Origin: Candidatus Levybacteria bacterium RIFCSPLOWO2_01_FULL_42_15
GTDB lineage: Bacteria > Patescibacteriota > Microgenomatia > Levybacterales > UBA12049
Reading direction: 5' to 3'
Assembly (NCBI GenBank): GCA_001784055.1
Contig: MFOZ01000019.1
Span: 18,593-82,592 of the forward strand
Length of the DNA stretch: 64,000 bases
Shown here in pieces: positions 15,752-31,598 of this stretch. The position numbers were made by a program, and so were the translations under genes. A model generated the notes under the pieces. That model saw only the letters and a program-made list of their open reading frames with translations, was not told where the DNA came from and searched no databases. The number at the start of each line of letters is the position of its first letter. Within the stretch, counting starts at the first letter, position 1.

Positions 15752-17263
15752 GTGTTTTATTTTGTTGGATTTATTATTCCATTGATTAGTTATTTGTTTC
15801 AGATTTATCCCCGCTTGATAAATCGCTACTTTGGCGTGGATGTTTGGTCTCGGATGCTTGAGGCCGATTTTATTCGAAGAAATGGGCACCGAGTTCCTAT
15901 GCAAAAAATCAGCGATGGATTTATTTTGGAAGGATACTTTAATTATCCTCCTGTATTGCCTTGGCTCTTATCTTTTCTCTCAAAAAAAACGTTATTGGGC
16001 GTGCAGGGTTTTATCGCGCCGCTTTTTGATGTTATACAAAATATTTTAGTTTTTATTGCCATACTACAGTTAACTGGCAATATAGCTATCGCCGTACTGG
16101 GTCAAATTATCTATGCAACAATTCCTCTGGCTATCCTTGAGAATAGCTATTTAACTCCGCGATCGTTAGGTTATCTTACTTTTACTGTTGCATTTTACCC
16201 CTTAATTCTTTATTCCCTCGTACCCAATCCATTCTATCTTACCGTTGGGTTTATGTTTACCGTACTCTGTTTTTTTACGCACAGATTTGCCACTCAATCA
16301 CTTCTTTTTATGTGCGTATTTTTTTCTATCATAGATAGAAATCCTTTTTATCTCGCCGTTTTTTTTGGTGCTATGATTGTAGCAATTATCACAAGCCGTG
16401 GGTATTACCTGCGGGTTCTCGATGGACATATTGCAAATATTTACTTTTGGGTTTTAAATTATAAACTACGATTTGCCCATCAGGTACGAGGTATAGTAAA
16501 GAAAAGACAGAAGTGGGATTTTGTAAGCTTAGTATATTTTGTTTTAGGAAAATTTACCCCAGTGACACTTATTGGGACAAATCTTTGGATTGTAGTCCCG
16601 GTATTTTTCCTTCTGGAGAAGCTATTCGGTTTTGGTATCATTCCACAAGAGATTCTTATGGAACCGCTCTATTTTAAGATGTCTTTATGGGTACTATTTT
16701 GCTATGTTCTTGGAGCGCTTGTTTTATCCATTCCCTATCTTCAGCCTATTGGAGAAGGCCAGCGATATTTAGAAATGGCACTAGCTCCTACAGCAATAGT
16801 AGCAGCAGTGACATTTTCCCCCCTTTGGAGTACAGGCTATGCTGTTATTGCAACCGCTTGTTTTGTTCTCATACTTTGTACCAATATTGCTCTTACATTT
16901 ATCTCGCAATGGATGGGGATAATCAATGACAAATATAGAAGCCTTCATAAAGACATGCGAGAAGTATTTGCATTTATTAATACGCTCAAACCAGCTTCCC
17001 GAATTCTCTGTATTCCTCACCAAATAACAACAATGGTTTTGTACAATACAAAAGCAAGCGTATTGGTAGATATTCAAACGGGGACGTTACAACGAATACG
17101 TGATGTTTACCCAATATTAAGAAGCTCCGTACAAGATATCGCTAAAAAGTATAATCTTAATATGCTTATTCTCAAAAAATATTTTGCGTCCATGGAAGAA
17201 CTTAAACTTGATAAGAAATCTTTGATTTTTGAAACAGAAGAAACACAGATATTTAAACTTTAG
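15752..17263 (+). CDS. Polytopic membrane protein, putative GT-C-type glycosyltransferase
   Basis: About 12 predicted hydrophobic helices with extracytoplasmic loops. No recognisable transporter motifs. Sits inside the glycan cluster. Confidence 0.45.
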   Translation: MFYFVGFIIPLISYLFQIYPRLINRYFGVDVWSRMLEADFIRRNGHRVPMQKISDGFILEGYFNYPPVLPWLLSFLSKKTLLGVQGFIAPLFDVIQNILVFIAILQLTGNIAIAVLGQIIYATIPLAILENSYLTPRSLGYLTFTVAFYPLILYSLVPNPFYLTVGFMFTVLCFFTHRFATQSLLFMCVFFSIIDRNPFYLAVFFGAMIVAIITSRGYYLRVLDGHIANIYFWVLNYKLRFAHQVRGIVKKRQKWDFVSLVYFVLGKFTPVTLIGTNLWIVVPVFFLLEKLFGFGIIPQEILMEPLYFKMSLWVLFCYVLGALVLSIPYLQPIGEGQRYLEMALAPTAIVAAVTFSPLWSTGYAVIATACFVLILCTNIALTFISQWMGIINDKYRSLHKDMREVFAFINTLKPASRILCIPHQITTMVLYNTKASVLVDIQTGTLQRIRDVYPILRSSVQDIAKKYNLNMLILKKYFASMEELKLDKKSLIFETEETQIFKL

Positions 17264-17264
17264 T

Positions 17265-17930
17265 ATGGATAAAACAAAGAAAGTAATAACGAAGGTTCTT
17301 ATTCTCGGAACAGGAGGCATGTGTATTGATATTCTCGATATAATGAATGAGTTAGGTGGGTATACCTGTATTGGTTTTCTTGATGATGATAAGGAAAAAT
17401 GGAATAAGGAATATCAAGGCGTACGTGTTTTAGGACCTCTCACAAAGGCCAAAGAGTTTGTTGATGCCTATTTTGTTAACGGTATTGGTAATGCAAGCAA
17501 TTTTTTGCAGAAAAAAACAATTATCGATAGAACAGGAATTCCTGATGAAAAATTTCTATCTCTTGTTCATCCCACAGCCAGTATATCAAAAAGGGCTTCA
17601 GTTGGAATGGGTACTGTGATATTTCAGCATGTTACTGTGGCATCAAATGCAAAAATTGGCAATCACGTTTTAATTATGGCCAATAGTGTGGTAAGTCATG
17701 ATGTGATAGTGGGCGATTATACATATATAACAGGAGGTGCATGTATTTCTGGCTTGGTTACCATCGGCAGATCATCCTATTTGGGAACAAACTGTTCAAT
17801 TATTGGCAAAATTACCATTGGAGACAATGTGCTTATAGGTATGGGGAGCGTTGTGTTGAAAGATGTACCCTCGGATAGTGTATACGTAGGGAATCCTGCT
17901 AAATTTTTACGGAAAATAAATAACATGTAA
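17265..17930 (+). CDS. NeuD/PglD-family sugar N/O-acetyltransferase (Rossmann-like N-domain + hexapeptide repeats)
   Basis: N-terminal VLILGTGGMCIDILD...FLDDD. C-terminal left-handed beta-helix repeats (IGNHVLIMANSVVSHDVIVGDYTYI...). Start chosen at the Met following the upstream stop (17261-17263). Confidence 0.75.
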   Translation: MDKTKKVITKVLILGTGGMCIDILDIMNELGGYTCIGFLDDDKEKWNKEYQGVRVLGPLTKAKEFVDAYFVNGIGNASNFLQKKTIIDRTGIPDEKFLSLVHPTASISKRASVGMGTVIFQHVTVASNAKIGNHVLIMANSVVSHDVIVGDYTYITGGACISGLVTIGRSSYLGTNCSIIGKITIGDNVLIGMGSVVLKDVPSDSVYVGNPAKFLRKINNM

Positions 17931-17999
17931 TAGGATATCTGAATGATTCTGTGAGATGCTTGTGTATTGCAGGGAGAAAGTTGAGGATTGGAGGAAATA

Positions 18000-18635
18000 T
18001 TAATTTTTTACGGCCATAGCAATAAGTTCATCAATAGGTTTATTATACCAGCTGCTTTGTTTATATTCCTTAATTTTGTTAGGGGAGAAGCGGAATTTTA
18101 TTAATTTTGCCGGAACCCCGCCATAAATCCCAAATTCTTGCGTAAGTCCCTTTACTAAGGAGTGTGTGCCAATCCCTCCACCATTTTTTATCGTACTGCC
18201 TCCTATTACGCTTACATTCTCGCCAATCCAAACATCTTTTTCTATTTTCGTATAGCCATAGTAAACTCTTTCTTTATTGCGCAGAGCTTTTTGCTTACTT
18301 TTTTTCAGGAGAATATAGAAGCTAAATGTTGAGAAACGATTATAATTGTGACCGTACGGCAAAACCTTAAAATCAGCACCGATAGATGTGAATTTATCAA
18401 TAGAAACATTGGAAATTTTAGCATCCCGTCCAAGAATTGAATATTCCTCGAGAATTACATTTGGTCCTATCCACGAATTACATCCCACTCTCGCATTTTT
18501 TTTTATTGTAACAGTGAATATGTCTATCAGGCATCCTCCGCGAATCATAGCTCCCGGATATCGTATCCAATAAACCGGCATTAATATCCACCCAAGTATA
18601 TTAGCAACTGTTTTTTCCATAAATCTAATTACCAT
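18000..18635 (-). CDS. Hexapeptide-repeat acetyltransferase (maltose/xenobiotic O-acetyltransferase-like)
   Basis: Hexapeptide repeats (VGCNSWIGPNVIL...; VWIGENVSVIGGSTI). 211 aa. Confidence 0.7.
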   Translation of the reverse strand: MVIRFMEKTVANILGWILMPVYWIRYPGAMIRGGCLIDIFTVTIKKNARVGCNSWIGPNVILEEYSILGRDAKISNVSIDKFTSIGADFKVLPYGHNYNRFSTFSFYILLKKSKQKALRNKERVYYGYTKIEKDVWIGENVSVIGGSTIKNGGGIGTHSLVKGLTQEFGIYGGVPAKLIKFRFSPNKIKEYKQSSWYNKPIDELIAMAVKN

Positions 18636-18846
18636 AAATTATAAGATAAAGAGCTTATGCTGGCAAGTATTTGTTTTTTTTGCAATTTGTATAATAATAG
18701 TGTATAAAAATGAAAGTAAAATTTTTATATCTAATTTATTTATGTTAAATTCTAATAAAAATGAAAACCCATTTGTATTAATAATGACTCTTTCCTATTG
18801 GGGATTAAGACCAAAAATTTTCCGCGGTTTTTAATGGAGAAAGATA

Positions 18847-21300
18847 ATGCTTAATATAAAACAAGGTATAAAAAATCATAAAATTATTATTGCAATGGCG
18901 CTCGTTCTCTTTTCTATCCCTTTCTTTTGGCTAAAGCCGGGAGAAATAGATATGGGAGGAGACGGGGGAAGTCTGTATTTTTATGATCCTATTAATTTCA
19001 TAAAGCACTCTGCCATATTCGAAAGTCTTCCATTTGGGACAGGAGTAATAGATACGCAATTTTATTACTTGCCTTTCGTAACTCTCATCACGCTTCTAAA
19101 AATTTTTTTGTCATCGCATCTTTTAAGCATTCTGCATAATAGTACGAAGTTGGTTGTTGGTTTTCTTTCCATATATGGCATTATGAAAGTGTTGCTTTCT
19201 TTCTCAAGGGAGAAAAATGCTCTTTTACGAGAAAAATTTAAAAAAATAGAAATCGTTAGCATTCTTACAGGTATTTTTTATATATTTTTACCGGTACTTA
19301 CGATGGATGATAGGTATGTTAATCCTCTGTCAATCCATGACCAGGTATTTTTAAATCCTCTTATATTTTATCTGATGTTAAAGTTTATTCTTACAGAAAA
19401 ATGGAAATATCTCGTAATTGCATTAGGGGTTAGTCTGATTCTTTCTCATAATTTTTATATTGCCTCTCCATCTCTTTATGCATTTTATCCTTTCGCGTTT
19501 TTATTTCTCGTTCTTTATGTCAGAATTATATTAAAAAGAACATTACCAATAAAAAGGATAATAGTAGGGGTAGTTTTCTTTATTTTTCTGCATTTTTTTC
19601 ATTTGTGGCCTGAGATAGCAAACTTATTTAATTCGGGGTCCAACATCAATGTTCGAATATTTAGCAAAGAAGCATACAAACAACAGACGCAGTATTTCTA
19701 CGGCGTTATTCATATTGCAAGTCTTGCAAAAAGCATACTTTTGCCTTCAATTTCAGGAGGCGCGTGGTTGATTTTTGTCTTCATTAGTCCCCTTATTATC
19801 TTATTAGGTTTTTTGAAGAACAGGTTTAGGTCAAGACTATTTTTGCTTACAGGATTATTTTTCTTAATTACGCTTTTTCTTATTTCGGCAAAAATTTCTT
19901 ACACGAGTATAAAACTGTACGAAATGTTTTTTTTATATATACCGGGATTTGGTATGTTTCGGAATTTTTATATCCAATGGATATATGTATTTGCATTTTT
20001 TTACACGCTTATGTTCGGACAAGCGCTTTATTTAATTTACTCCTCACTTGATAATAAAAAAGTTAATCTTATTTCTCTAATGTTGGCGATCTATCTTATT
20101 GGTAGCGCTTGGCTATTTATAAACGGTCATCAATTTAATCCTCCTTATGTTGATTCAGATAATGTGAGAAGACATCTCGTTATGGATCCCGAATATGAAA
20201 AGATGCTTGAGTTTATCCGAAATGTACCATATGATGGTAAATTACTTCAATTTCCCTTTAATGATTTTAATCATCAGGTTGTTCATGGAATAGGTGATGG
20301 TGCGTATATTGGCGCCACATCAATAGGACAACTTACGGGAGTTAAGGATTTTTCAGGTTATTGGCATACGGCTCCATATAGCCAGGCATTTCTTGAGTCA
20401 AGTAAAAAAAAGGATTACGAAACATTAATAAAAATCCTTGGGCTTTTAAATATCCGTTATATTTTTTATAATTCTGATCCAAGAGTTTACGATACTACTT
20501 TCACCGGCCGACCGTTTACTTACGTAAGGCAATTTCTTCCTTCGACTCAAAAGGATTATAAGGAGTTTATAAAACCATTGGTAGGGGAGAAACTGTTTGA
20601 AGCTGGTTCTTATAGTCTCTATTTAACAAAAAAAGAATCATATATTCCTCAGATGTATATTCCTAAAGTATCAATGGCTTACAAACACAATCCAAAGTAC
20701 GATAGGTATTATGAAGGAGCATCTTCCTTTATTTTAAATAATAAACAAGATGAGAAAAGAGTGGCTTATATAGAAAAGAACGATTGTAGCGGTAAGCCTT
20801 TCCTGCAAACCTTTTGTGAAAGAAATGTTTTCTATGAGGGAGCGATGCCAAAAATATATTTTAAAAAAATTAATCCAACAAAATATAAAGTTACAATTTC
20901 AGATATACAAAATCCATTCCTTTTAGTTTTTTCAGATACTTTTAATCGCAATTGGAAACTTTTTATTGGCAAAAACAATCCCTTAGAAGAATCCAACGCA
21001 AAAATATATTTCAATGGTGAGATTAGAGAGGAAAAGTCTGAGAATATTTTTATTGATAAAAAAACTTTTGAAACAATCGGATTGAAAAATATACCTGAAG
21101 AACAACATTTTTCCGTGAACGGTTTTGCAAATGCTTGGTATGTACATCCAAAAGATATTGATATGCAACGAGAGGCGACCTTTATAGTAGAGATGATTGA
21201 TCAGCGGTCATTTTATTCTGCGCTTCTGTTATCCTTGATTGCACTTTGTGGGTTTTTTATTTGGGGAATTGTCCTTCTTCTAAGAAAACTTTTAATTTAG
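18847..21300 (+). CDS. Large polytopic membrane protein (817 aa) with C-terminal extracytoplasmic domain and terminal TM anchor; putative GT-C glycosyltransferase
   Basis: More than 12 N-terminal hydrophobic helices, a roughly 350-aa hydrophilic domain, and a final TM helix (ALLLSLIALCGFFIWGIVLLL). This architecture resembles arabinofuranosyl/mannosyl GT-C enzymes. Confidence 0.45.
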   Translation: MLNIKQGIKNHKIIIAMALVLFSIPFFWLKPGEIDMGGDGGSLYFYDPINFIKHSAIFESLPFGTGVIDTQFYYLPFVTLITLLKIFLSSHLLSILHNSTKLVVGFLSIYGIMKVLLSFSREKNALLREKFKKIEIVSILTGIFYIFLPVLTMDDRYVNPLSIHDQVFLNPLIFYLMLKFILTEKWKYLVIALGVSLILSHNFYIASPSLYAFYPFAFLFLVLYVRIILKRTLPIKRIIVGVVFFIFLHFFHLWPEIANLFNSGSNINVRIFSKEAYKQQTQYFYGVIHIASLAKSILLPSISGGAWLIFVFISPLIILLGFLKNRFRSRLFLLTGLFFLITLFLISAKISYTSIKLYEMFFLYIPGFGMFRNFYIQWIYVFAFFYTLMFGQALYLIYSSLDNKKVNLISLMLAIYLIGSAWLFINGHQFNPPYVDSDNVRRHLVMDPEYEKMLEFIRNVPYDGKLLQFPFNDFNHQVVHGIGDGAYIGATSIGQLTGVKDFSGYWHTAPYSQAFLESSKKKDYETLIKILGLLNIRYIFYNSDPRVYDTTFTGRPFTYVRQFLPSTQKDYKEFIKPLVGEKLFEAGSYSLYLTKKESYIPQMYIPKVSMAYKHNPKYDRYYEGASSFILNNKQDEKRVAYIEKNDCSGKPFLQTFCERNVFYEGAMPKIYFKKINPTKYKVTISDIQNPFLLVFSDTFNRNWKLFIGKNNPLEESNAKIYFNGEIREEKSENIFIDKKTFETIGLKNIPEEQHFSVNGFANAWYVHPKDIDMQREATFIVEMIDQRSFYSALLLSLIALCGFFIWGIVLLLRKLLI

Positions 21301-21400
21301 ATTGACATCGTTTAAAAACTTTCTCTACGCTTGAGCGAATCATTCATTAGGTATGACTTCTCTTTCCTTATTAATGAATATAGTATATATGTAAATATTT

Positions 21401-21568
21401 ATGTCCGAAAAAATACCTTCAAGTAAAGTGTTTGCTTGGAAGAAAATTTTAGTCATGGGTGGCAGTGGGTTTGTTAGTAAGCATGTAGTAAGAAAATTAA
21501 AAGGAAGAGGCGTGAAGGAAAAAATCTATTGCAAGTTGATAGAAAAAAGGTATAATTGCAATAGTTAA
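21401..21568 (+). pseudogene. Remnant of an NAD-dependent epimerase/dehydratase gene (N-terminal Rossmann fragment, 55 codons)
   Basis: The ORF MSEKIPSSKVFAWKKILVMGGSGFVSKHVVRKLKGRG... carries the GxGxxG NAD-binding signature of SDR epimerases, then terminates after 55 codons. It lies in an otherwise non-coding gap. Confidence 0.4.
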
Positions 21569-21569
21569 T

Positions 21570-21941
21570 ATGGTAAAGATTGAAAATAAATTTGATGTGA
21601 TAAGTGTAAATAAAAGATTTCAAATCGCACTCCTATTGCTTTTTTTTGCCGGATTTATTTATGATGTGTTTTTCATAGTTCCTGCTTTTACCTTAGTATC
21701 GGATATACGGTTATTTTCGCTTTTATTGCTCTGGATTTTTCTTAGTAAAATATCGGGTTTTAACAGTATGGCAACACTGAAGGTGCTCGTGGGTTTCCTC
21801 TTGGTGATGTTCTTCCTCTTTATTTCTTCTCAAACAAATCCTGTTGTAGAAAGAGTAGGATCGTGGGTTTATATGTTTTTACTAATGGCAATTATTCAAC
21901 AGCTTTCTGAATCAAGAAAACGAGTCTCTCGACAAAAGTAA
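21570..21941 (+). CDS. Small polytopic membrane protein (123 aa), possible GtrA-like flippase partner of the downstream GtrB-like enzyme
   Basis: Three to four hydrophobic helices. Located immediately upstream of a GtrB/ArnC-like GT2. No recognisable motif, so positional inference only. Confidence 0.35.
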   Translation: MVKIENKFDVISVNKRFQIALLLLFFAGFIYDVFFIVPAFTLVSDIRLFSLLLLWIFLSKISGFNSMATLKVLVGFLLVMFFLFISSQTNPVVERVGSWVYMFLLMAIIQQLSESRKRVSRQK

Positions 21942-22006
21942 CATGGTTTTATCTTCTGAAAATGTAACTGCGAAATGGCACAATTCTAGAGCTATATAGC
22001 CTATAT

Positions 22007-22933
22007 ATGATAAGTGTTGTTATTTCAGTTTACAACGAGGCAGAAAGCTTACATATCTTTTATGAACATCTTATACAAATAATAAAAATCTTAGATGAGC
22101 CATATGAAATTATCTTTATTGATGATGGATCAACCGATGGATCGTTTGAACTACTAAAGCAAATAGCGCAGAAGGATCGCCATGTGAGATTTTTTTCATT
22201 TAGAAAAAATCAAGGGAAGGCAGAAGCTTTAACGTTGGGTTTTCAAAAAGCAAGGGGTGACTATATTGTCACTCTTGATGCGGATTTGCAGGATAAGCCT
22301 TCCGAAATTCCAAGGCTTTTAGAAAAGGTGGAAGAGGGATGGGATGTGGTGTGCGGGTGGAGGAAAAATCGTAGGGACTCTTTTTCTAAAGTTATTTCTT
22401 CAAAAATTTTTAATAAGATCGCCTCGTTTTTCTGGCAATTACAGCTTCATGATTATAACTGCGGCTTAAAAGCATACGCCAAAGATGCGGCAAAAAGTTT
22501 GCATCTATATGGGGGGATGCATCGATTCATTCCGCTTCTTGCATTCCAGAATGGTTTTCGTGTATGCGAAATTCCTGTAGTTCACCAAAAGAGAAGATAT
22601 GGGAAGTCGAAGTATGGATTTTCAAAAATTTTCAAAGATATTCCAGACATATTTACCATGCTTTTTTTAGTACGCTATAGTAGTAGACCGCTTCATTTTT
22701 TTGGAATGATTGGAGGAATTCTGCTCTTTATCGGATTTTCTATTTTAGGTTATCTTAGTATAATTTGGTTTCAGGGTGAGTCAATAGGAAGAAGACCCCT
22801 CTTGTTTTTGGGCATGCTTCTTGTCTTAGGCGGGTTTCAAGTTTTTTTTACAGGGTTTTTAGCAGATCTTATGATTAGCTTATTTAATAAAGGTAAACAG
22901 GAATTTCCCTTAAAATACTCAAACGGTGAGTAG
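22007..22933 (+). CDS. Polyprenyl-phosphate glycosyltransferase (GtrB/ArnC/Dpm1-like GT2 with two C-terminal TM helices)
   Basis: Motifs ISVVISVYNE, DDGSTDGS, LDADLQD. C-terminal pair of TM helices, characteristic of the Und-P-sugar synthase subfamily. Confidence 0.8.
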   Translation: MISVVISVYNEAESLHIFYEHLIQIIKILDEPYEIIFIDDGSTDGSFELLKQIAQKDRHVRFFSFRKNQGKAEALTLGFQKARGDYIVTLDADLQDKPSEIPRLLEKVEEGWDVVCGWRKNRRDSFSKVISSKIFNKIASFFWQLQLHDYNCGLKAYAKDAAKSLHLYGGMHRFIPLLAFQNGFRVCEIPVVHQKRRYGKSKYGFSKIFKDIPDIFTMLFLVRYSSRPLHFFGMIGGILLFIGFSILGYLSIIWFQGESIGRRPLLFLGMLLVLGGFQVFFTGFLADLMISLFNKGKQEFPLKYSNGE

Positions 22934-23518: not shown

Positions 23519-23558
23519 AGATTGGGTATGATCAGGATGTTTTCTATTATATACGAAA

Positions 23559-23780: not shown

Positions 23781-23781
23781 T

Positions 23782-24330
23782 ATGAAAATAGGAATTGATG
23801 TAAGCCAGCTGGTATATTCTAACACTGGAGTAGCAAACTACTTAGAGAACTTGGTTCAATGTTTGCTTAAGGTTGATAAGGAGAATGAGTACGTATTCTT
23901 CTTTTCCTCTTTAAGAAGAAAATTTCTAATTTCTAATTTCAAATTTTTAAATAAATCCCAATTTTTAAATCCCAAAATTAAGATAAATACATTTAAAATA
24001 CCGCCTGTTTTATTAGATTTCCTTTGGAATAGGTTGCATATTGTACCAATAGAGTGGTTTATTGGAGATGTTGATGTATTTATTTCCTCGGATTGGACGC
24101 AGCCACCTACTAAAAAAGCCAAAAAAGCGACGATTCTGTACGATCTTATTGTGCATAAATATCCCAATGAAACGGACAAAAAAATTGTAGATACGCAAAG
24201 AAGAAGACTTACGTGGGTGAAAAAAGAATGCGATGTGGTATTTTGTATATCGGAATCAACAAAAAAGGATGCGATGGAGATTCTGGGAATTGAGAAGAGA
24301 AAGCTAAAGGTTATTTATCCCGGGATTTAA
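23782..24330 (+). CDS. Truncated GT4-family glycosyltransferase paralog (N-terminal Rossmann domain only)
   Basis: MKIGIDVSQLVYSNTGVANY... aligns with the N-domain of the downstream full-length GT4 (MIIGIDGNEANVQRRVGISEY...). It ends at KVIYPGI, the linker VVTYPGV in the full-length copy. No C-domain follows in any frame. Confidence 0.5.
   Translation: MKIGIDVSQLVYSNTGVANYLENLVQCLLKVDKENEYVFFFSSLRRKFLISNFKFLNKSQFLNPKIKINTFKIPPVLLDFLWNRLHIVPIEWFIGDVDVFISSDWTQPPTKKAKKATILYDLIVHKYPNETDKKIVDTQRRRLTWVKKECDVVFCISESTKKDAMEILGIEKRKLKVIYPGI
23921..23948. repeat. Heptanucleotide tandem repeat (AATTTCT)2(AATTTCA)(AATTTTT) inside the truncated GT4 CDS
   Basis: Direct reading of sequence 23921-23948, followed by a second AAATCCCA duplication. 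Confidence 0.8.
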
Positions 24331-24366
24331 TAGACCATTGTTTAATTAATACATTGTTAAATTACT

Positions 24367-24373
24367 GGGGGGG
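24367..24373. repeat. Homopolymeric G7 tract in the ribosome-binding region of the full-length GT4
   Basis: ctGGGGGGGtaataaatATG, 9-15 nt upstream of the start at 24382. It is highly unusual in roughly 30% GC DNA. Confidence 0.8.
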
Positions 24374-24381
24374 TAATAAAT

Positions 24382-25566
24382 ATGATAATAGGTATTGATG
24401 GGAATGAGGCGAACGTACAGAGACGAGTAGGTATTTCGGAGTACGGCTTCGAACTTCTTAAGAATTTCAAATTTCAAATTTCAAATTTCAAATTTCAAAT
24501 TTACCTTAAAAAGCCTCCCTTGCCTCATATGCCTAAGGAACGAGACGGATGGCGATATAGAATTGTTCGGCCAGAAAAGTTATGGACGCAGATAGGTCTA
24601 CCGATCGATTTGTTCTTTCATAAGCCTCGTCCGGATGTGTTTTTTAGCCCCACGCATTACGCTCCTCGTTTTTCTCCTGTTAACTGCGCAATTTCAATCA
24701 TGGACGTATCGTATTTGCGTTTTCCTTCTCTGTTTAATGCGTCGGATTTGTATCAGCTCAAGAACTGGACCGCTTATTCGGTAAAAAAAGCAGTGAAAAT
24801 CTTTACCATAAGTAAATCAAGTAAAAATGATATAATAAAAGCGTATGGTGTGTCTGAAGAAAAAGTAGTGGTGACATACCCGGGAGTAAAATTCAAAAAT
24901 ATGGTTCGACAAACTCACCATCCTGAGCAAAGTCGAAGGACAATGCAAAATTCAAAAGTACTAGAGAAATACGGAGTTGATAGGAATTATGTTCTTTTTG
25001 TTGGGACGCTGCAACCAAGGAAGAACATTGAACGGCTCATCGAAGCCTTCAGCCTTGTTTGTCATCCTGAACTTGTTTCAGGATCTCAATCAAAACGAGA
25101 TTCTGACCTTCGTCAGAATGACATCCAACTTATAATCGTTGGCAAGAAAGGATGGCTGTACGAGGACATCCTAGAGGCGCCCAAAAAATTTGGAGTAGAA
25201 AATAGCGTCAAGTTTCTGGAGTTTGTTCCAGAAGAGGATCTTTCGAGCCTCTATCAAAATGCTCTTTTTTTTATTCTTCCCAGTTTATACGAAGGGTTTG
25301 GGTTGCCGGTGCTTGAGGCAATGAGCTACGGGTGTCCTGTAATAACCAGTAATGTGAGTAGTCTTCCTGAAGTAGGGGGAGATGCGGTTCTGTACGTAGA
25401 TCCGTTAAGTACAAGTGATATCTGTGAAAAAATGAGGATGATATTTTTGGATGAAAAGCTTCGCGCCGAACTTCAAAAAAAGGGATACGAGCAGGTTAAA
25501 AAGTTCAACTGGGAAAAAACAGCAAAACAGACACTTGATATTTTAGAAAATCTCGCGCAAAAATAA
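24382..25566 (+). CDS. GT4-family (glycosyl transferase group 1) glycosyltransferase
   Basis: N-domain MIIGIDGNE... C-domain motifs LFVGTLQPRKNIERLIEAF, FILPSLYEGFGLPVLEAMSYGCPVITSNVSSLPEV (E-x7-E). Confidence 0.85.
   Translation: MIIGIDGNEANVQRRVGISEYGFELLKNFKFQISNFKFQIYLKKPPLPHMPKERDGWRYRIVRPEKLWTQIGLPIDLFFHKPRPDVFFSPTHYAPRFSPVNCAISIMDVSYLRFPSLFNASDLYQLKNWTAYSVKKAVKIFTISKSSKNDIIKAYGVSEEKVVVTYPGVKFKNMVRQTHHPEQSRRTMQNSKVLEKYGVDRNYVLFVGTLQPRKNIERLIEAFSLVCHPELVSGSQSKRDSDLRQNDIQLIIVGKKGWLYEDILEAPKKFGVENSVKFLEFVPEEDLSSLYQNALFFILPSLYEGFGLPVLEAMSYGCPVITSNVSSLPEVGGDAVLYVDPLSTSDICEKMRMIFLDEKLRAELQKKGYEQVKKFNWEKTAKQTLDILENLAQK
24463..24504. repeat. Heptanucleotide tandem repeat (AATTTCA)x5 plus AATTTAC inside the GT4 CDS
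   Basis: Direct reading. Encodes NFKFQISNFKFQIY. The unit length is not a multiple of 3. Confidence 0.9.
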
Positions 25567-25569
25567 TCT

Positions 25570-26127
25570 ATGATACTGTTCAGAATAAAAAGAAGAATTA
25601 TGGCAATTCTTCTTGAGCTTGAAGTGATGTTTCTCCACGGAGTAGGCAATATTCCGTCTCATCATCTGCGAAGATTTTTTTATAGAGCCTGCGGTATAAA
25701 GATCGGTTGCGGGTCAACGATCCATACGGAGGCAAAATTCTACAACCCGTCAAATATACGGATAGGAGAAGATACAATCATAGGTGAAGGGGTTGTTCTT
25801 GATGGGAGAGAGAAACTATCTATTGGAAACCATGTCGCAATCGCCTCCGAAGTCATGATATATAATGCAGAGCATGATGTTCAAAGTGAAGATTTTCATG
25901 CAGTAATGGAGCCGGTTGTTATTGAGGATTATGTCTTTATTGGGCCGCGAGCGATTATTCTTCCGGGGGTTACGGTTAAAAAGGGAGCAATTATTGCGGC
26001 AGGAGCGGTGGTAACCAAAGATGTTGAGCCATTTGATATCGTTGCAGGCGTACCGGCAAAGCCAATCGGCAAACGCAATTTTAGCAATCCACAGTATCAA
26101 CTGGGAAGAGCTGCTTGGTTTCGATAA
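25570..26127 (+). CDS. Hexapeptide-repeat acyl/acetyltransferase (WbbJ-like)
   Basis: Left-handed beta-helix repeats ([15 protein letters not shown]...[13 protein letters not shown]; [25 protein letters not shown]). Confidence 0.7.
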
Positions 26128-26999
26128 AGCGCATGGTAGACATATCAATTGTTATTGCAACTTTTAACACAAAAGACCTAACTCGTGCCTGTATTCATTC
26201 GATTATTTCTTCTTACCCAAAAGAATTCCGCGAAAAAAAGTTTGAAATCATTCTTGTTGATAACGCGTCAAGCGATGGGACGGCTGATGAGATTAAGGGT
26301 GAATTTGGGGATATAAACGTATTGCAAAACAAAACGAATGTCGGATTTGCAGCTGCGTGTAACCAAGGCGTAAAAGACGCAAAAGGAGCGTATTTTTTAT
26401 TCCTTAATTCCGACACAAGAACAACAAAGAAAAGCAACTTAAATGACTTAATTGATAAGATGAGAGAAAATACCACCATAGGGATAATTGGGGGTGCTCT
26501 TGTAAGTGAGGAAGGGTTAGTGCAGAAGTCTTATGGATCTTTTTATCATCTTTTGGAGCTCATTAAGGTCTTATTCACAGGGAAAAAGAAGGGGCGAGTT
26601 TTGTCTATAGAGTCTTTTGTCGATTGGGTGAGCGGGGGGTTTATGTTGACCAAAAAGAGCCTATTTCAAGCTCTTAACGGATTTGACGAGCATTTTTTTA
26701 TGTACTTGGAAGATATGGAGTTTTGCTACCGGGCTTCTCAAAAAGGACACAAGGTTTTATATGCTCCGTGGGCAAAAGTTTTTCATAAGGAACACGGAAG
26801 CTCAAGTAGATCGTTTGCCATTGGAGAAATTTATAAAGGCATTCTATACTTTTATAGAAAACATAAAAACGGATTTTTACTTATACTTGTAAAAGGGATG
26901 TTGTTATTAAAAGCTCTTGTTGCAATGGGAATTGGCGTTGTAAGCGGAAATAAATATCTTTTTTCTACATATAAAAACGTCCTTCGTTACGCATTATGA
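26115..26999 (+). CDS. Glycosyltransferase family 2 (rhamnosyltransferase/WbbL-like)
   Basis: [13 protein letters not shown]...[11 protein letters not shown]; LNSDT; [16 protein letters not shown]. The start could alternatively be the Met at 26133. Confidence 0.8.
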
Positions 27000-29900
27000 A
27001 TATTGTTAGGTGGATCGTAAATAATATTTTCTTTCTTGCAACACTTTTTTTACTTGCGTTTATTCCTCTTTATCCCAAAATCCCACTTTTGGATGTTGAG
27101 AACACATGGGTTTATATTAGATTAGAAGATGTTATCGTTGTATTTGTTTTTTTGATTTGGATTACTTTTTTCTTATTTAAGAAAGTTACGCTAAAAACTC
27201 CGCTAACATTACCCATAATTCTATTTTGGATTATTGGTGGATTAGCAACTCTTCATGGAATACTCCTGATTTTTCCTACTATTGCCAATGTTTTTCCTAA
27301 TGTAGCCTTTTTAAGTTTTTTAAGGAGAATAGAGTACCTATTTTTATTCTTTGTTGCTTTTGCCGCTATGAAGATAAAGACGCATATATTCTACGTTGCT
27401 GCGACATTGGTAGTAGTTCTTCTTTTGGTTGTGGGGTATGGAGTTGGACAGAAATTCCTTGAATTCCCGGCGTATTTAACCATGAATGAAGAATTCGCTA
27501 AGGGAATTCCTATACAGCTCTCACAACTTTCGCGAGTTCCGTCTACGTTTGCGGGTCATTATGATCTGGCTGCATATTTGGTTCTCGTGATTCCTCTTAT
27601 TGTTAGTATGGCTTTTGGATTTAAAAATTTGCTTATAAAGATTTTTTTATTGATATCTGCTTCTTTAGGTTTTGGTCTTATTTTTATGACCGTATCTCGA
27701 GTTTCATTTTTTGTGCTTTTACTTTCCATGATTATGCTTTTAATTCTTCAGAAAAAAAGATTGCTTATATTTTCTTTTTTCTTAATAGTGCTTGTATTTT
27801 TAAGTTTTTCTCCAAGTCTTCTTGCGCGTTTTGGAAGTACGGTTTCAGAGGTTGATGTGTTGGTTGATTCTTCTAGCGGGGCGGCAATTGGACACGTGAA
27901 AGATGTCCCGGCTGAATATTTCAAGGATAAAGTTGTTTTGAGGCAGCCCGCTTCAAAAGAAGAATCTCATGTGGCTAGTTCTTCTGCGATATTACCTTTT
28001 TTATTCATCCCGGAAGTAGCATCTCTTGTTGTGGAAGAAAACACTCTAACAGGAGAAAACCTGCCACAGGGAACCAGTTACATAAATCTTCCCCTCTCGC
28101 CTGTTACCAAAAAGATAGGGCAATTTTTCTACCAAAAATCGAATGATCCAAAAACAGCGGAAGTGCGTGTTTTTTATGGAGATTTTCTTGTAAAAAGAGC
28201 CAAAGCGTACGATCTTTCGTTCACCACCCGATTTCAGGGAGAATGGCCAAAGACAATTGCGGCATTCAAGAGAAATATTTTTTTAGGTAGCGGCTATGGC
28301 TCTGTGAGCCTTGCCGTTGACAATAACTATTTACGGATATTAGGAGAATCGGGATTGCTTGGATTTGTAGCTTTTATATCAATCTTTTTAACCGCCGGTA
28401 TATATATAAAAAGGGTATTGCCGAGCGTTGATTCTCCTGTTGTCCGAAGTTTTGTTTTGGGCTTTGTTGCCGGCACATTCGGATTAGCCCTAAACGCAGT
28501 GCTTATTGATGTTTTTGAGGCGTCCAAAATTGCTTTCACATATTGGCTCTTAATGGGTGTAACAATTGGTGTTTTGCAATTGTACAAGAAGGAAAAGATA
28601 GATTTTTTTAAAGAGTTCATAAAGGTAGTAAGCTCTCCCTACGCAATTATTATGTATCTTTTTATTGTCACGGTACTATTGTTTTATTCAGCTTCAAGCT
28701 ACTATTTTGTGGGTGATGATTTTACATGGCTTCGATGGGTTTCGGATGGATATTTTAAGAATGGGATACTCAGTTATTTTACAGAGGCTAATGGATTTTT
28801 CTATCGGCCCGGAGCCAAGCTATATTTCTCCTTAATGTATTCAGCATTTTGGCTTAATCAGGTAATGTATCATGCGGTGTCGATTTTTCTCCATTTCCTT
28901 GTTGCGGGATTTATATTTTTGATTTCCAAAAGAATCTTAAAAGACGTCTTTTTATCTACGGCTACCGCGTTTCTGTTTCTAATTATGAGCGGATATTCTG
29001 AGGCAGTTTTTTGGATTTCTTCCACGGGCTTTCTTTTTAACGCGGTGTTTGCGCTTTCTAGCCTACTGTTTTATATGTTCTGGAAAGAAAAGAGGAGAAA
29101 AATTTTCTTTATTCTTTCGTTTTTTTGCATTGCCTTAAGTCTTCTGTTTCATGAAATTGGCATTATTACGCCTTTGTTAATTATACTGTATGATCTTGTT
29201 TTTGTTGAAAAGCAATTTAGCCTGGGACTTTTACAAAAAAAACGCTATTATTTTGTCTTTCTTTCTCCCCTTATTCCCTATCTTGCGTTGCGGTACGCGG
29301 CTAACAGTCACTGGTTTAGCGGCGATTACAGCTACAACCTATTAAAGCTTCCTTTTAACAGTATTGGTAATATAATTGGTTATTTATCTCTTTCTCTCTT
29401 TGGTCCCATGTCGTTATCTCTCTATTCAGGGTTTAGAAGTATCTTACGAGAGCACGTTGTTATTTCGGCAGTAGCATTAACAATATTAGCCTGTATTACC
29501 GTTTTTTTCTATCGAATGGTTATGAAAAAGATGGCAAAAGAAGATGCAAAAATTGTCGTTTTTGGATTTTTGTTTTTTATAATCGCGCTCGCGCCATTTT
29601 TAGGGCTAGGGAATATTTCTTCTCGCTATAGTTATTTATCTTCTTTTGGGCTTGTCCTTCTTTCTGTATTCTTTCTTAAGAAGACATACGGTTTCCTTCT
29701 TGTCAACGGGCGAGGTATTGCCGTGACGAGCGTCATTATCATTGTTCTTATATTTTCCTTTCTCCACCTGATGCAGTTGCAAAAAATAAATTCGGATTGG
29801 AAAGTTGCCGGTGAAAAATCAAAAAAGTTTTTGGTCTCATTTAGCGATATATATCCGGATTATCAAATAAAAGGAAAGATGCAATTTTATTTTGTCAATG

Positions 29901-30133
29901 TACCGATTCGTGTAGGAGATGCGTGGGTGTTTCCTGTTGGCTTGGGTGATGCGTTGTGGTTTATTCTCAAAAATGAAGATCTTGCGGTGTATCAAGTGCA
30001 GTCGAGCAAAACCGCGCTTGATCTGGCAGAAACGTCAGAAAGAAGTAAAGTCTTTATGTTTGATACCCGTGCGGCCGTTTCCGAAGTGCGAAGAACAGAC
30101 AATGGCGATATTATTTACCTGAATGCGAAATAA
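26996..30133 (+). CDS. 1045-aa polytopic membrane protein: N-terminal O-antigen-ligase/polymerase-like (Wzy_C-type) module fused to a C-terminal ArnT/PMT-like GT-C module
   Basis: Residues about 1-540 have about 12 TM helices with an O-antigen-ligase-like region (...FMTVSRVSFFVLLL...) and a large loop. Residues about 540-1045 form a second TM bundle starting YYFVGDDFTWLRW, resembling GT-C family-39/83 N-termini. Confidence 0.55.
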   Translation: MNIVRWIVNNIFFLATLFLLAFIPLYPKIPLLDVENTWVYIRLEDVIVVFVFLIWITFFLFKKVTLKTPLTLPIILFWIIGGLATLHGILLIFPTIANVFPNVAFLSFLRRIEYLFLFFVAFAAMKIKTHIFYVAATLVVVLLLVVGYGVGQKFLEFPAYLTMNEEFAKGIPIQLSQLSRVPSTFAGHYDLAAYLVLVIPLIVSMAFGFKNLLIKIFLLISASLGFGLIFMTVSRVSFFVLLLSMIMLLILQKKRLLIFSFFLIVLVFLSFSPSLLARFGSTVSEVDVLVDSSSGAAIGHVKDVPAEYFKDKVVLRQPASKEESHVASSSAILPFLFIPEVASLVVEENTLTGENLPQGTSYINLPLSPVTKKIGQFFYQKSNDPKTAEVRVFYGDFLVKRAKAYDLSFTTRFQGEWPKTIAAFKRNIFLGSGYGSVSLAVDNNYLRILGESGLLGFVAFISIFLTAGIYIKRVLPSVDSPVVRSFVLGFVAGTFGLALNAVLIDVFEASKIAFTYWLLMGVTIGVLQLYKKEKIDFFKEFIKVVSSPYAIIMYLFIVTVLLFYSASSYYFVGDDFTWLRWVSDGYFKNGILSYFTEANGFFYRPGAKLYFSLMYSAFWLNQVMYHAVSIFLHFLVAGFIFLISKRILKDVFLSTATAFLFLIMSGYSEAVFWISSTGFLFNAVFALSSLLFYMFWKEKRRKIFFILSFFCIALSLLFHEIGIITPLLIILYDLVFVEKQFSLGLLQKKRYYFVFLSPLIPYLALRYAANSHWFSGDYSYNLLKLPFNSIGNIIGYLSLSLFGPMSLSLYSGFRSILREHVVISAVALTILACITVFFYRMVMKKMAKEDAKIVVFGFLFFIIALAPFLGLGNISSRYSYLSSFGLVLLSVFFLKKTYGFLLVNGRGIAVTSVIIIVLIFSFLHLMQLQKINSDWKVAGEKSKKFLVSFSDIYPDYQIKGKMQFYFVNVPIRVGDAWVFPVGLGDALWFILKNEDLAVYQVQSSKTALDLAETSERSKVFMFDTRAAVSEVRRTDNGDIIYLNAK

Positions 30134-30137
30134 TTAC

Positions 30138-31598
30138 ATGATACGCAAAAAAGAAATAATAGCTCTTTTTCTTATTCTTACTTTGGGTTTTATCGTTCGG
30201 CTCTATAAGTTTACTAATCCTATTGCCGACTGGCATTCGTGGAGACAATCAGACACGTCTTCCGTATCCAGAAACTTTGTGAAATACGGGTTTGATCTTC
30301 TTCATCCACGGTTTGATGATCTATCTAACGGCGTGTCGCTTCTTGACAATCCGAAAGGATACCGTTTCGTAGAATTTCCAATCTACAACGTGTTTCAAGC
30401 CGGACTCTTTGAGTTGTTTCATACGTTTACTATTGAAGAGTGGGGTCGATTAGTTAGTATTGCGTCAGTTTTGATTGCAACGGTTTTTCTCTATCTTTTG
30501 GTGAGGGAATATGTATCTTCTCGCGCAGGTCTTTTTGCCGCATTTTTTTACGCACTCCTTCCGTATAATATTTATTTCGGTCGCGTTATCTTGCCGGATA
30601 CGCTGATGGTTGCCTTCATGCTTGGGGGGTTATATTTTTTTGATGCGTGGACAAAAAAAATCAAAACAAATCAAAAACGCGTTCAGGCACTCTTATTTTT
30701 TATGCTCGCGGTTCTGTTTACAGCATCTGCTATTCTTATCAAACCGTTCGTTCTATTCTACGGATTAGCTTTTGTTTATATTCTCATAAAAAGATTTGGA
30801 TGGCGTTTACTGAAGCGATGGGATATATGGCTGTTTGCGATTCTTTGCCTTTTGCCCTTTGTTCTTTGGAGAGCGTGGATGCAGCAATATCCGGAAGGAA
30901 TTCCTAGAAACGATTGGCTATACAATGGGAATGGGATCCGTTTTAGAGGAGCATTTTTTTGGTGGATTTTTGCGGAACGAATTGGAAAAAACATGCTTGG
31001 ATATTGGGGCCTTCCCATTATTGTTATTGGACTTATTTCTAAAATAAAAGAGAAAGATACTTGGTTCTTTTTTACCTTTATTATTGCGTCTCTTCTTTAT
31101 ATAAGCGTATTTGCAACAGGGAATGTTCAGCATGATTATTACCAGATTCTTATTGTGCCAACGCTTGCCATTTTTTTTGCCAAGGGAGCAGAAGCAATCG
31201 TTGAATTTTCTTCCCATGCCTTCCATAAATTCCTCGCCTTAGCAACGTTTGCGATCTGTGTTGTCTTTATGTTTATGTTTGGGTGGAGAGAAATCAGGGC
31301 ATTTTACAACATTGATCATCCGGAAATTGTTGAAGCAGGGCGCGCGATTGACGCGCTTACCCCAAAAAATGCAAAGATTATTGCGATATACAACGGAGAT
31401 ACAACCTTTCTCTATCATACAAATAGACAAGGATGGCCAGTCTTTGAAAGATCTATAAAAGATTTTGTAAAGGCAGGGGCAACCCACATAGCGTTTGTAA
31501 ATCAAGGAGAAAAAGAATCAAACTTTGCAAATGAATTTAATACGGTCAAAGTAACAGAACGATATGCAATATTTGATCTTACAAAAAAGAAAAAATGA
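30138..31598 (+). CDS. GT-C-type membrane glycosyltransferase, family 39/ArnT/PMT-like
   Basis: Start IRKKEIIALFLILTLGFIVRLY..., then a WRQSDT loop motif, then about 11 TM helices. Start taken at the Met after the upstream stop. Confidence 0.6.
   Translation: MIRKKEIIALFLILTLGFIVRLYKFTNPIADWHSWRQSDTSSVSRNFVKYGFDLLHPRFDDLSNGVSLLDNPKGYRFVEFPIYNVFQAGLFELFHTFTIEEWGRLVSIASVLIATVFLYLLVREYVSSRAGLFAAFFYALLPYNIYFGRVILPDTLMVAFMLGGLYFFDAWTKKIKTNQKRVQALLFFMLAVLFTASAILIKPFVLFYGLAFVYILIKRFGWRLLKRWDIWLFAILCLLPFVLWRAWMQQYPEGIPRNDWLYNGNGIRFRGAFFWWIFAERIGKNMLGYWGLPIIVIGLISKIKEKDTWFFFTFIIASLLYISVFATGNVQHDYYQILIVPTLAIFFAKGAEAIVEFSSHAFHKFLALATFAICVVFMFMFGWREIRAFYNIDHPEIVEAGRAIDALTPKNAKIIAIYNGDTTFLYHTNRQGWPVFERSIKDFVKAGATHIAFVNQGEKESNFANEFNTVKVTERYAIFDLTKKKK

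Follow-up and report, generated by a model that had tools for sequence, protein, structure and literature searches.

A conserved core operon and a variable island of glycan genes

We analyzed a stretch of 64,000 nucleotides (64 kb) of contig MFOZ01000019.1, hereafter the window, from Candidatus Levybacteria bacterium RIFCSPLOWO2_01_FULL_42_15, a member of the Microgenomates (Levybacteria) within the Candidate Phyla Radiation (CPR). Positions are counted from the first letter of the window and genes are named by their start. The G+C content is low (0.30–0.42), and almost all of the genes between positions ~2964 and 39937 have functions in sugar activation and transfer. An earlier note on this DNA had proposed that the region encodes one complete extracytoplasmic glycosylation machine built around four glycosyltransferases of the GT-C fold. 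We find instead that it consists of two units, a core operon (23559–39937) that is conserved throughout the lineage and a strain-variable island (2964–23518).

The comparison was centered on the large core gene 26996, which encodes a fusion of two membrane domains. Searching species-representative genomes with an alignment of the fusion gave matches at at least 579 places, and the best 80 of these (fusion identity 43–65%) were compared gene by gene. Counts of upstream genes refer to the 45 of the 80 loci with a full upstream flank. The order of the core genes listed here, followed by recO, is common to all 80 loci, as far as each contig extends.

23559–23780, forward: small membrane protein of 73 amino acids (aa), first core gene; two transmembrane (TM) segments by hydropathy, three hydrophobic stretches by eye
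23782–24330, forward: GT4 N-terminal-domain-only protein, 182 aa (NCBIfam/Pfam)
24382–25566, forward: GT4 glycosyltransferase (NCBIfam/Pfam)
25570–26127, forward: WcaF-type O-acetyltransferase (NCBIfam/Pfam)
26115–26999, forward: GT2 glycosyltransferase (NCBIfam/Pfam)
26996–30133, forward: fusion protein of 1045 aa with two domains and ~21 TM segments
26996–28597, forward: N-terminal half of the fusion (residues ~1–535), Wzy_C-like; ~12 TM segments and a ~170-aa external loop (residues ~280–445)
28598–30133, forward: C-terminal half of the fusion (residues ~535–1045), PMT_2-like GT-C; ~110-aa C-terminal external domain
30123–31598, forward: PMT_2-type GT-C, 491 aa (486 aa from the ATG at 30138); Pfam model PF13231 (PMT_2) E = 7e-13, 49.5 bits against a cut-off of 26.1; PMT 1e-6
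from 31595 (within 31595–37203), forward: GT4 glycosyltransferase (NCBIfam)
from 32878, forward: GT2 glycosyltransferase (NCBIfam)
from 33818, forward: GT4 glycosyltransferase (NCBIfam)
from 34997, forward: GT4 glycosyltransferase (NCBIfam)
from 36118, forward: mannose-1-phosphate guanylyltransferase ManC (NCBIfam GMP_PMI, 224 bits)
37187–37870, forward: PglC-type small monotopic phosphoglycosyl transferase, 227 aa; Pfam Bac_transf E = 2.3e-58, 197 bits against a cut-off of 27
37946–39937, forward: DUF4012 protein, last core gene; Pfam DUF4012 E = 1.3e-21; N-terminal TM segment and ~600-aa external part

Genes 23782–26999 are collinear and present in 62–75 of the 80 loci, and genes 31595–37203 in 52–75, with unchanged order. 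Orthologues of 30123 occur in 72, always directly after the fusion gene. The DUF4012 gene was found in 38 loci, many of which end before its position, and the 73-aa protein stands directly before the GT4 half-gene in ~50 related loci (jackhmmer). The transferase 37187 has a median identity of 69.5% in 50 loci, one N-terminal hydrophobic segment (residues 23–58), and NCBIfam matches to the C-terminal domain of WbaP and exopolysaccharide (EPS) sugar transferases. By these matches it is predicted to be the initiating enzyme that makes a polyprenyl-diphosphate sugar, consistent with the PglC-like function that the earlier note had assigned to it. Méheust et al. (PMC6744442) reported an enrichment of DUF4012 and of many membrane “hypotheticals” in CPR bacteria and Microgenomates, in a study that does not describe the operon itself; DUF4012 also occurs in a Bifidobacterium EPS cluster (PMC6744442). 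In the literature that we searched, we found no description of the conserved operon or of CPR glycosylation.

The genes upstream of the core differ between genomes. Within 10-kb flanks, none of the 80 loci has an orthologue of the large membrane protein 15752, and there was a single weak match to 18847. AftD-like paralogues of the latter lie upstream of the core in 32 of the 45 full-flank loci. Also typical of this upstream stretch are genes for sugar-nucleotide enzymes, methyltransferases, and small membrane proteins, with a GtrB-type synthase gene where it borders on the core. The sugar-supply genes at 2964–12040 are not conserved beside the core in other genomes. On the 3′ side, the glycan genes are followed by recO, glyS, purF, and then the cell-wall and division (dcw) cluster, with mraZ (identified by position), a penicillin-binding protein, Mur ligases, MurA, GlmS, MraY, FtsW, and MurG.

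The open reading frames (ORFs) that the earlier note had named at 15752 (503 aa), 18847 (817 aa), 26996 (1045 aa), 21570, 22007, and 37187 are all present at those positions. Its ORF of about 486 aa at 30138 is also present and extends over 30123–31598. That the named ORFs are real conserved genes and not chance ORFs is confirmed by the number of homologues of the three large unannotated proteins (207, 472, and 1407 at E ≤ 1e-3, almost all of them unnamed or “hypothetical” proteins of Levybacteria, Gottesmanbacteria, and other Microgenomates) and by the collinear neighborhood of 26996 in 80 species-level genomes. Hydropathy predicts ~9–13 TM segments for 15752, 11+1 for 18847, ~21 for 26996, and 8–11 for 30123. 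Hydropathy and AlphaFold secondary structure concur in showing polytopic domains with external soluble parts (~360 aa in 18847, ~170 aa in 26996, and ~100 aa in 15752), as first read from the letters. The first external loop of these large membrane proteins carries conserved acidic residues.

A Wzy_C-like domain fused to a PMT_2-like glycosyltransferase

The protein 26996 had been counted among four GT-C proteins. Three of the four assignments concern whole proteins, namely 15752 and 18847 by fold and 30123 by Pfam; in 26996 the assignment applies to the C-terminal half, and the N-terminal half resembles a different family. The Pfam Wzy_C model (PF04932) matches 32 of 36 orthologues of 26996, with a best E-value of 7.8e-6, and is precomputed for eight of 120 homologues among the matches listed. 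Several orthologues are named “O-antigen ligase family protein” by NCBI. The N-terminal half had no sequence match in the Protein Data Bank (PDB). We consider it likely, from the matches of the orthologues, that this half belongs to the Wzy_C superfamily of O-antigen ligases, polymerases, and O-oligosaccharyltransferases. The Wzy_C-like half also carries a conserved GSGYGS...AVDNNYLRILGESGLLG motif, in which the residue before N-N-Y-L(-R) is an invariant Asp, D442 (window 28319–28333, residues 442–446). The equivalent place in WaaL and PglL is, we presume, occupied by a catalytic His.

The C-terminal half gave no Pfam match (PMT_2 in none of 52 family members) and no PDB match, and a tblastn search with it against plasmids returned one insignificant match. 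Its profile finds five standalone paralogues of 500–590 aa in other genomes, one of which matches PMT_2 at E = 0.008. An hhalign comparison based on shallow alignments was uninformative, and significance was reached only after the standalone paralogues and other PMT_2 proteins were added. With the enriched profiles (78 C-terminal halves and the five paralogues against 70 orthologues of 30123 and three other PMT_2 proteins), the probability was 91.8% in local mode (E = 7.3e-7) and 94.8% in global mode (E = 1.2e-8, 433 columns). As a positive control, the PMT_2 and AftD-like families, each assigned to GT-C on independent grounds, were compared and gave 90%; unrelated membrane profiles, used as negative controls, gave ≤ 2%. 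The alignment places the invariant FVGDDFTW of the C-terminal half, located after its first TM segment, on PIADWHSWRQ of 30123, so that the invariant D574-D575 directly after this segment align with D36. In the 30123 family, A35, D36, W37, H38, R41, Q42, D44, and T45 are conserved at ≥ 90% after TM segment 1 (the ADWHxxRQxDT motif), and the orthologue in locus L086 is likewise annotated as PMT_2. The C-terminal half is thus, with high probability, a PMT_2-like GT-C. We found no description of the Wzy_C–GT-C fusion architecture in the literature searched.

GT-C proteins of the variable island

The island contains the following genes.

2964–12040: sugar-nucleotide supply with RmlD, RmlC, a C-methyltransferase, an epimerase, an acetyltransferase, two GT2, and a heptose-type pathway (Pfam)
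12046–12858, reverse: sugar N-formyltransferase-like protein; Pfam Formyl_trans_N E = 1e-15; PRK06988 (67.5 bits) and ArnA (61 bits), both below the NCBIfam cut-off
12858–13730, reverse: polysaccharide-deacetylase-family enzyme; Pfam Polysacc_deac_1 E = 8.8e-13; no TM or signal segment
14483–15742, forward: DegT/ArnB/PseC-type sugar 4-aminotransferase; Pfam DegT_DnrJ_EryC1 E = 5e-91; best NCBIfam match ArnB, 281.6 bits, below the cut-off
15752–17263, forward: predicted GT-C glycosyltransferase, 503 aa; ~13 TM segments and a ~100-aa external C-terminal domain
17229–17930, forward: NeuD/PglD/VioB-type amino-sugar N-acetyltransferase; Pfam PglD_N and Hexapep; TIGR03570, 195 bits against a cut-off of 160.8
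18847–21300, forward: predicted AftD-like GT-C glycosyltransferase, 817 aa; 11 TM segments, a beta-rich external domain of ~360 aa, and a TM anchor at the C-terminus
21570–21941, forward: small membrane protein, 123 aa; four hydrophobic segments (three TM by hydropathy, the fourth by eye)
22007–22933, forward: ArnC/GtrB/CsbB-type membrane-anchored GT2, 308 aa; Pfam Glycos_transf_2 E = 1.6e-36 over residues 3–163

Neither 15752 nor 18847 had a match in Pfam or NCBIfam or a sequence match in the PDB, in single-sequence and profile searches. A protein recorded for “Candidatus Levybacteria bacterium RIFCSPLOWO2_01_FULL_42” shares 100% identity with 15752. The AlphaFold2 model of 15752, built from 38 homologues, has a predicted local distance difference test (pLDDT) score of 89.5. 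When it was compared with the PDB by Foldseek, the 33 best matches were all GT-C (best E = 1.8e-7, to STT3; TM-score up to 0.61) and comprised STT3, AglB, DPY19, ArnT, PglB, AftA, AftD, ALG9/12, Pmt4, AftB, and Emb proteins. Transporters appeared only at E > 0.1 and with low probability. In the family of 38 sequences, the helix after TM segment 1 carries a nearly invariant D30 and an invariant E37. The model identifies 15752 as a predicted GT-C of a Microgenomates-specific family that lacks Pfam coverage. Its top folds STT3, AglB, and PglB could be taken to indicate an oligosaccharyltransferase, yet ArnT and others score alike, so the fold ranking does not discriminate; a WWDxG-type motif was not seen on reading the sequence, and we rejected this assignment.

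The model of 18847 (pLDDT 89.0) matched mycobacterial AftD first among solved structures (E = 3.7e-8), followed by STT3 and PglB. It resembles AftD over both the membrane part and the soluble ~360-aa extracytoplasmic domain, which lies between the eleventh TM segment and the C-terminal anchor, and it falls outside the AftD/DUF3367 sequence family. Among 43 homologues searched against Pfam, there were only five weak TMEM260-like matches. G37 and D39 in the first external loop are invariant in the family, and E33 and D47 nearly so. Because the family profile detects another 31 large membrane ORFs without annotation at related loci (E from 1e-5 to 1e-17), the models and profiles define what is predicted to be a large and diversified Microgenomates GT-C family that populates variable islands.

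We also weighed whether the large membrane proteins could be transporters, or belong to unrelated families, and cluster with sugar genes incidentally. The missing Pfam and PDB sequence matches for 15752, 18847, and the C-terminal half of 26996 are compatible with this. The fold searches with 15752 and 18847, in which only GT-C proteins rank at the top and transporters appear at E > 0.08 and probability < 0.2, refute it for these two proteins, and the conserved acidic residues of the first external loop also speak against it. For the set as a whole we regard the idea as having practically no chance of being correct.

A side observation concerns the gap between 18847 and 21570. A 55-aa ORF (21401–21568, forward) resembles the N-terminus of a NAD-dependent sugar epimerase (VMGGSGFVSKHVV) and matches residues 2–24 of a 329-aa epimerase in locus L051 with 52% identity, which makes a gene remnant the probable explanation.

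A predicted sugar-lipid synthase and a new family of small membrane proteins

Downstream of 18847, the protein 22007 combines its GT2 domain with two C-terminal TM segments (~235–253 and 265–283). Its best full-length NCBIfam match is ArnC, at 184 bits against a cut-off of 529, followed by PgfS at 143 bits against 500; neither amounts to an equivalog-level match to a characterized member. The domain layout nevertheless identifies 22007 as a predicted polyprenyl-phosphate sugar synthase and bears out the GtrB/ArnC-type reading of the earlier note. A GtrB-type gene lies just upstream of the core in 20 of the 45 full-flank loci. An apparent deletion of this gene in one sister contig (L001) proved to be a 100-N scaffold gap.

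The neighboring 123-aa protein 21570 had been put forward as a possible GtrA-type flippase. Its small size, its three or four TM segments, and its linkage to GtrB and GT-C genes agree with that proposal; its family does not, because the GtrA model (PF04138) has no match to 21570 at E ≤ 0.1 and matches none of 49 family members at E ≤ 1. The family comprises 53 cluster representatives (E ≤ 1e-3), and D32, D45, and an ER motif are conserved in it. Of 11 independent loci, seven have the gene immediately after one for an AftD-like GT-C, and three or four have it immediately before GtrB. At six loci the domain forms the C-terminus of proteins of 320–381 aa, which begin with an N-terminal TM segment and a ~190-aa external domain. 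We looked for fusions of the domain to GtrB, and the larger proteins carry this external domain and not a GT2. By its gene neighborhood, 21570 clearly appears to be part of the glycosylation module. By analogy with characterized systems (PMC8035078), it is a candidate lipid-phosphate-sugar flippase, GacJ-like synthase activator, or accessory subunit of a GT-C.

The 21570 gene is also a site of variation between assemblies. A sister contig (L003), which comes from another sample, has a 99-nt in-frame insertion (9859–9957) in the N-terminal tail of the protein, at window 21586–21591, bounded by inverted repeats (ATCCAGCACCTTT...AAAGGTGCTGGAT), and two other assemblies break exactly at this point with 100-N scaffold gaps. 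This points to either a hotspot of variation between strains or a mobile element that is small and palindromic.

The combination of an AftD-like protein with a lipid-sugar synthase raises the question of whether the product is a lipoglycan of the lipomannan or lipoarabinomannan type. The GT4 enzymes would then start a mannosylated lipid on the inside, and the PMT_2 and AftD-like GT-C proteins would elongate and branch it on the outside with polyprenyl-phosphate sugars made by GtrB. Mycobacterial AftD is the closest solved structure to 18847, ManC, several GT4, and a Ppm1/GtrB-like synthase are present, and there are many GT-C paralogues per genome. Against this, the PglC-type enzyme and the Wzy_C-like domain point to a polyprenyl-diphosphate intermediate and not to a glycolipid primer, and GtrB stands beside the core in only the 20 of 45 genomes counted above. 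We consider a lipoglycan very unlikely.

An Arn-like group of probable amino-sugar genes

Arn-like enzyme classes are clustered within 11 kb (12046–22933). The 12046 protein is proposed, from its sequence matches, to be a counterpart of the ArnA formyltransferase domain. The deacetylase-family enzyme 12858 is probably cytoplasmic because it lacks a TM or signal segment, and it may be an ArnD-like deformylase or may deacetylate an amino sugar that is bound to a lipid or a nucleotide. A DegT gene lies one or two genes from the 15752 homologue in all three other genomes checked, and two of the three also have an acetyltransferase gene beside it. By analogy, the group suggests that the island adds a decoration with an amino sugar following Arn-like logic.

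The Arn (PmrHFIJKLM) pathway modifies lipid A with 4-amino-4-deoxy-L-arabinose. It resembles the island in its aminotransferase, formyltransferase, ArnC-like synthase, deacetylase-family enzyme, small 4-TM protein, and ArnT-sized GT-C (15752, whose fold matches include ArnT), all within the 11 kb. It differs in that the matches found here are below equivalog cut-offs and include none to ArnD, that no UDP-glucuronate decarboxylase domain was identified, and that the organism has no lipid A. The island also encodes an additional N-acetyltransferase, so the sugar probably differs from the Arn sugar.

The translocation step

The PglC-type initiator, the six cytoplasmic GT4 and GT2 enzymes, and the Wzy_C-like domain together imply a lipid-diphosphate-linked oligosaccharide that would need its own translocase. 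The only other polytopic ORFs of the window encode MraY and FtsW, and no window ORF has a Walker A or LSGGQ motif; these checks uphold the earlier observation that the window lacks Wzx and an ABC exporter. Pfam searches of the 10 kb upstream of the window gave no Wzx, Wzz, MurJ, or ABC exporter, and a jackhmmer search with the Wzx of a relative had no match in the window or, in the 80 loci, up to 10 kb from the core. Of a canonical Wzx/Wzy/Wzz set, which the earlier note had named as evidence against its reading, the probable Wzy/WaaL-family domain inside 26996 is present, so that this objection applies in part; Wzx and Wzz were not found. Two other Microgenomates carry Wzx (PF01943) 6–7 kb from a homologue of 15752, which indicates that the lineage uses Wzx-type flippases, and this genome may encode Wzx elsewhere.

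These results bear on the proposal of a self-contained extracytoplasmic machine, in which the 123-aa protein flips nothing but lipid-linked monosaccharides, four GT-C enzymes grow the polymer outside, and neither Wzx nor an ABC exporter is needed. Wzx and ABC exporters were not found in 74 kb, and four GT-C modules stand with a GtrB-type synthase and with a small 4-TM protein linked to them. The synthase, the 4-TM protein, and the adjacent AftD-like GT-C are indeed arranged as in known multi-component transmembrane glycosylation systems (PMC8035078); the core, by contrast, implies the lipid-diphosphate oligosaccharide. A machine of this type would leave the six cytoplasmic GT4 and GT2 enzymes, the PglC initiator, and the Wzy_C-like domain without a role. 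Relatives have Wzx in homologous islands, 21570 is outside the GtrA family, and 15752 and 18847 are outside the conserved unit. The proposal appears quite improbable. The description of the machine as complete is not warranted either, since the oligosaccharide route would need a translocase, none was found in the window, and related islands carry Wzx.

A proposed two-tier envelope glycopolymer system

We favor, with moderate confidence, a two-tier envelope glycopolymer system, in which a core that makes a lipid-diphosphate oligosaccharide and has built-in GT-C side-chain enzymes is combined with a strain-variable decoration, probably an amino sugar, added by a GtrB-type synthase, a small protein, and GT-C enzymes. 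Gene families, folds, fusion architecture, and synteny are observed; how the steps follow one another, which donors and acceptor they use, and what 21570 does are inferred from these observations as follows. The PglC-type transferase 37187 would prime polyprenyl phosphate, and the four GT4, two GT2, and the O-acetyltransferase would assemble an oligosaccharide on the cytoplasmic face, with GDP-mannose from ManC. A translocase encoded outside the window would move the lipid-diphosphate oligosaccharide across the membrane. Outside, the Wzy_C-like half of 26996 would polymerize the oligosaccharide or transfer it en bloc, and the fused PMT_2-like half together with 30123 would add single sugars from polyprenyl-phosphate-sugar donors. 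The DUF4012 protein would act as an external helper. In the decoration tier, 22007 would load a sugar onto polyprenyl phosphate, 21570 would flip the lipid-linked sugar or assist its transfer, and 18847 and 15752 would attach the sugar to the polymer. The putative use of polyprenyl-phosphate-sugar donors by the GT-C modules on the outer face is suggested by the co-located ArnC/GtrB-type synthase.

Several observations weigh against this reading. No component of Wzx, MurJ, or an ABC exporter is present in the 64-kb window, and since no translocase was found in the 74 kb, one essential step is without an assigned gene. In the window we saw neither an LCP-type ligase nor any other enzyme for anchoring. 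The Wzy_C match of 26996 itself is weak (E = 0.005–0.011, 15.9–17.1 bits against a cut-off of 31.7), and 21570 and its 49 relatives have no other relevant Pfam family and no meaningful PDB match. None of the matches of the formyltransferase, the aminotransferase, and the ArnC-type synthase reaches its equivalog cut-off, and 12858 does not match the ArnD equivalog of NCBIfam, which makes the amino-sugar reading an analogy. Finally, a wall polysaccharide, a lipid, and a protein are not distinguishable from sequence as acceptors.

The main rival of the favored reading is protein O-glycosylation. The Wzy_C-like domain would act as an O-oligosaccharyltransferase of the PglL/PilO/WsaB type that passes the PglC-primed oligosaccharide en bloc to an S-layer protein or pilins, and the PMT_2 enzymes would be protein O-mannosyltransferases using polyprenyl-phosphate mannose derived from the GDP-mannose of ManC. 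The Wzy_C domain is common to O-antigen ligases, polymerases, and O-oligosaccharyltransferases. The presence of such a domain in the fusion is accordingly compatible with this rival, and these three functions are inseparable by sequence, which equally limits the argument. PMT_2 is a protein-mannosyltransferase-like family, the operon carries ManC, and the island has a heptose-type pathway. CPR genomes are also rich in pili and sortase (PMC6744442). We identified no operon gene for an acceptor, whether an S-layer protein or a pilin, and the strict conservation beside recO and the dcw cluster fits a structural envelope polymer at least equally well. We consider protein O-glycosylation rather unlikely.

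A bolder version of the two-tier system is that a Microgenomates-wide glycopolymer is made by a bifunctional Wzy_C–GT-C enzyme, which would link polymerization or en-bloc transfer with the glycosylation of side chains, and that new small membrane proteins (the 21570 family, the 73-aa protein 23559, or both) carry out translocation as a new class of lipid-linked-sugar flippase in place of Wzx, ABC, or GtrA proteins. We regard this version as unlikely.

Relation to known systems

The decoration tier resembles multi-component transmembrane glycosylation systems of Gram-positive bacteria and phages (GtrA/GtrB/Gtr, CsbB-GtcA-YfhO, GtlA-GtcA-GtlB, and GacI-GacJ-GacK-GacL; PMC8035078, PMC5836110, PMC7389260, bioRxiv 10.1101/180810) in its membrane-anchored GT2 (22007), in the small 3–4 TM protein beside the synthase (21570), and in its polytopic GT-C proteins with external domains (18847 and 15752). 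Such systems of a GT-A enzyme, a small flippase, and a GT-C are known to decorate wall polysaccharides built by Wzx/Wzy (PMC8035078). A variable module beside a conserved backbone cluster is also found for streptococcal and lactococcal wall polysaccharides. A difference is that 21570 lies outside the GtrA family in a family of its own and in some genomes makes up the C-terminus of a larger protein. Its GT-C partners are not YfhO and lack Pfam coverage, with a weak YfhO match in a neighboring paralogue of one relative, and there are several GT-C paralogues per synthase here. Compared with mycobacterial AftD (DUF3367; PDB 6W98/6WBX), 18847 is shorter (817 against ~1400 aa), shares ~11–12% identity, has no Pfam match, and has a single external domain followed by a C-terminal anchor.

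The core resembles the Wzx/Wzy pathways for secondary cell-wall polysaccharides, O-antigens, and S-layer glycans in combining a PglC-type initiator, six GT4 and GT2 enzymes, an acetyltransferase, sugar-nucleotide supply, and a Wzy_C-like domain in one operon. It differs from them in that Wzx, Wzz, and an LCP ligase were not found in the operon or window, and in that the Wzy_C-like domain (a weak match) is fused to a PMT_2-like GT-C. Among the PMT_2 or ArnT-like GT-C proteins (“glycosyltransferase family 39/83-like”), 30123 is above the Pfam threshold, and the C-terminal half of 26996 appears homologous, with the acidic motif aligned. This half and its standalone paralogues differ from these proteins in being below Pfam detection, and the half forms the C-terminus of a fusion in several hundred genomes.

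Every enzyme class found here is already known, and the general plan agrees with that of Gram-positive secondary wall polysaccharides, in which variable extracellular decoration accompanies a conserved backbone cluster (PMC8035078), and with Wzy-dependent or O-oligosaccharyltransferase-type pathways. What is new are three GT-C families and one family of small membrane proteins without database models, the Wzy_C–GT-C fusion conserved in several hundred species, the strict lineage-wide synteny of the core beside cell-wall genes, and the lack of a recognizable flippase among the finds in a glycan island that exceeds 50 kb, in what is probably a small CPR-type genome. Of the four families without Pfam coverage (the 503-aa GT-C, the AftD-like GT-C, the C-terminal half of the fusion, and the 123-aa protein), three can now be assigned to GT-C. 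The fusion may serve as a “Rosetta stone” that ties en-bloc glycan transfer to decoration with polyprenyl-phosphate sugars. The CPR, or Patescibacteria, make up a large share of bacterial diversity, are mostly uncultivated, and have almost uncharacterized envelopes. A 14-gene operon that is collinear in 80 of 80 loci, with its fusion at at least 579 places and beside the dcw cluster, is likely a core envelope component, and its product would be an obvious target for phages and for host contact.

Flanking genes and additional observations

The island extends beyond the window. The 10 kb on its 5′ side contains more sugar-modifying genes, and the island is therefore longer than 50 kb.

Upstream 10 kb (contig L087, 1–10000): a carbamoyltransferase, a GDSL esterase, a PIG-L deacetylase, ATP-grasp and thiamine-pyrophosphate-dependent enzymes, two epimerases, and two unannotated proteins (682 and 345 aa)

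The sugar-supply part of the island contains two further GT2 proteins within 7170–9204 (forward; 336 and 338 aa) with two or three C-terminal TM segments and no match at the ArnC/GtrB level, which could be additional polyprenyl-phosphate sugar synthases. They are followed at 9206–12040 (forward) by a fusion of an NTP-transferase with a HAD phosphatase, a GHMP kinase, and a SIS isomerase in a row. By their domains, these genes appear to make up an entire pathway to a nucleotide-heptose, of the GmhA/HddA/GmhB/HddC type. Nucleotide-heptose pathways occur in S-layer glycan clusters of some Gram-positive bacteria.

In the dcw cluster, a Mur-ligase-domain protein (56626–58302, forward) begins with a stretch of ~160 residues that contains ~3 hydrophobic segments, an unusual feature in a Mur ligase. 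Between the gene for this protein and MraY lies one for a DegT-type aminotransferase (58299–59540).

Many public records with clear Microgenomates content and synteny (L007, L008, L010, and others) are titled “uncultured Gammaproteobacteria bacterium,” and one is titled “Pacearchaeota archaeon.” These titles look like placeholder or wrong taxonomic labels.

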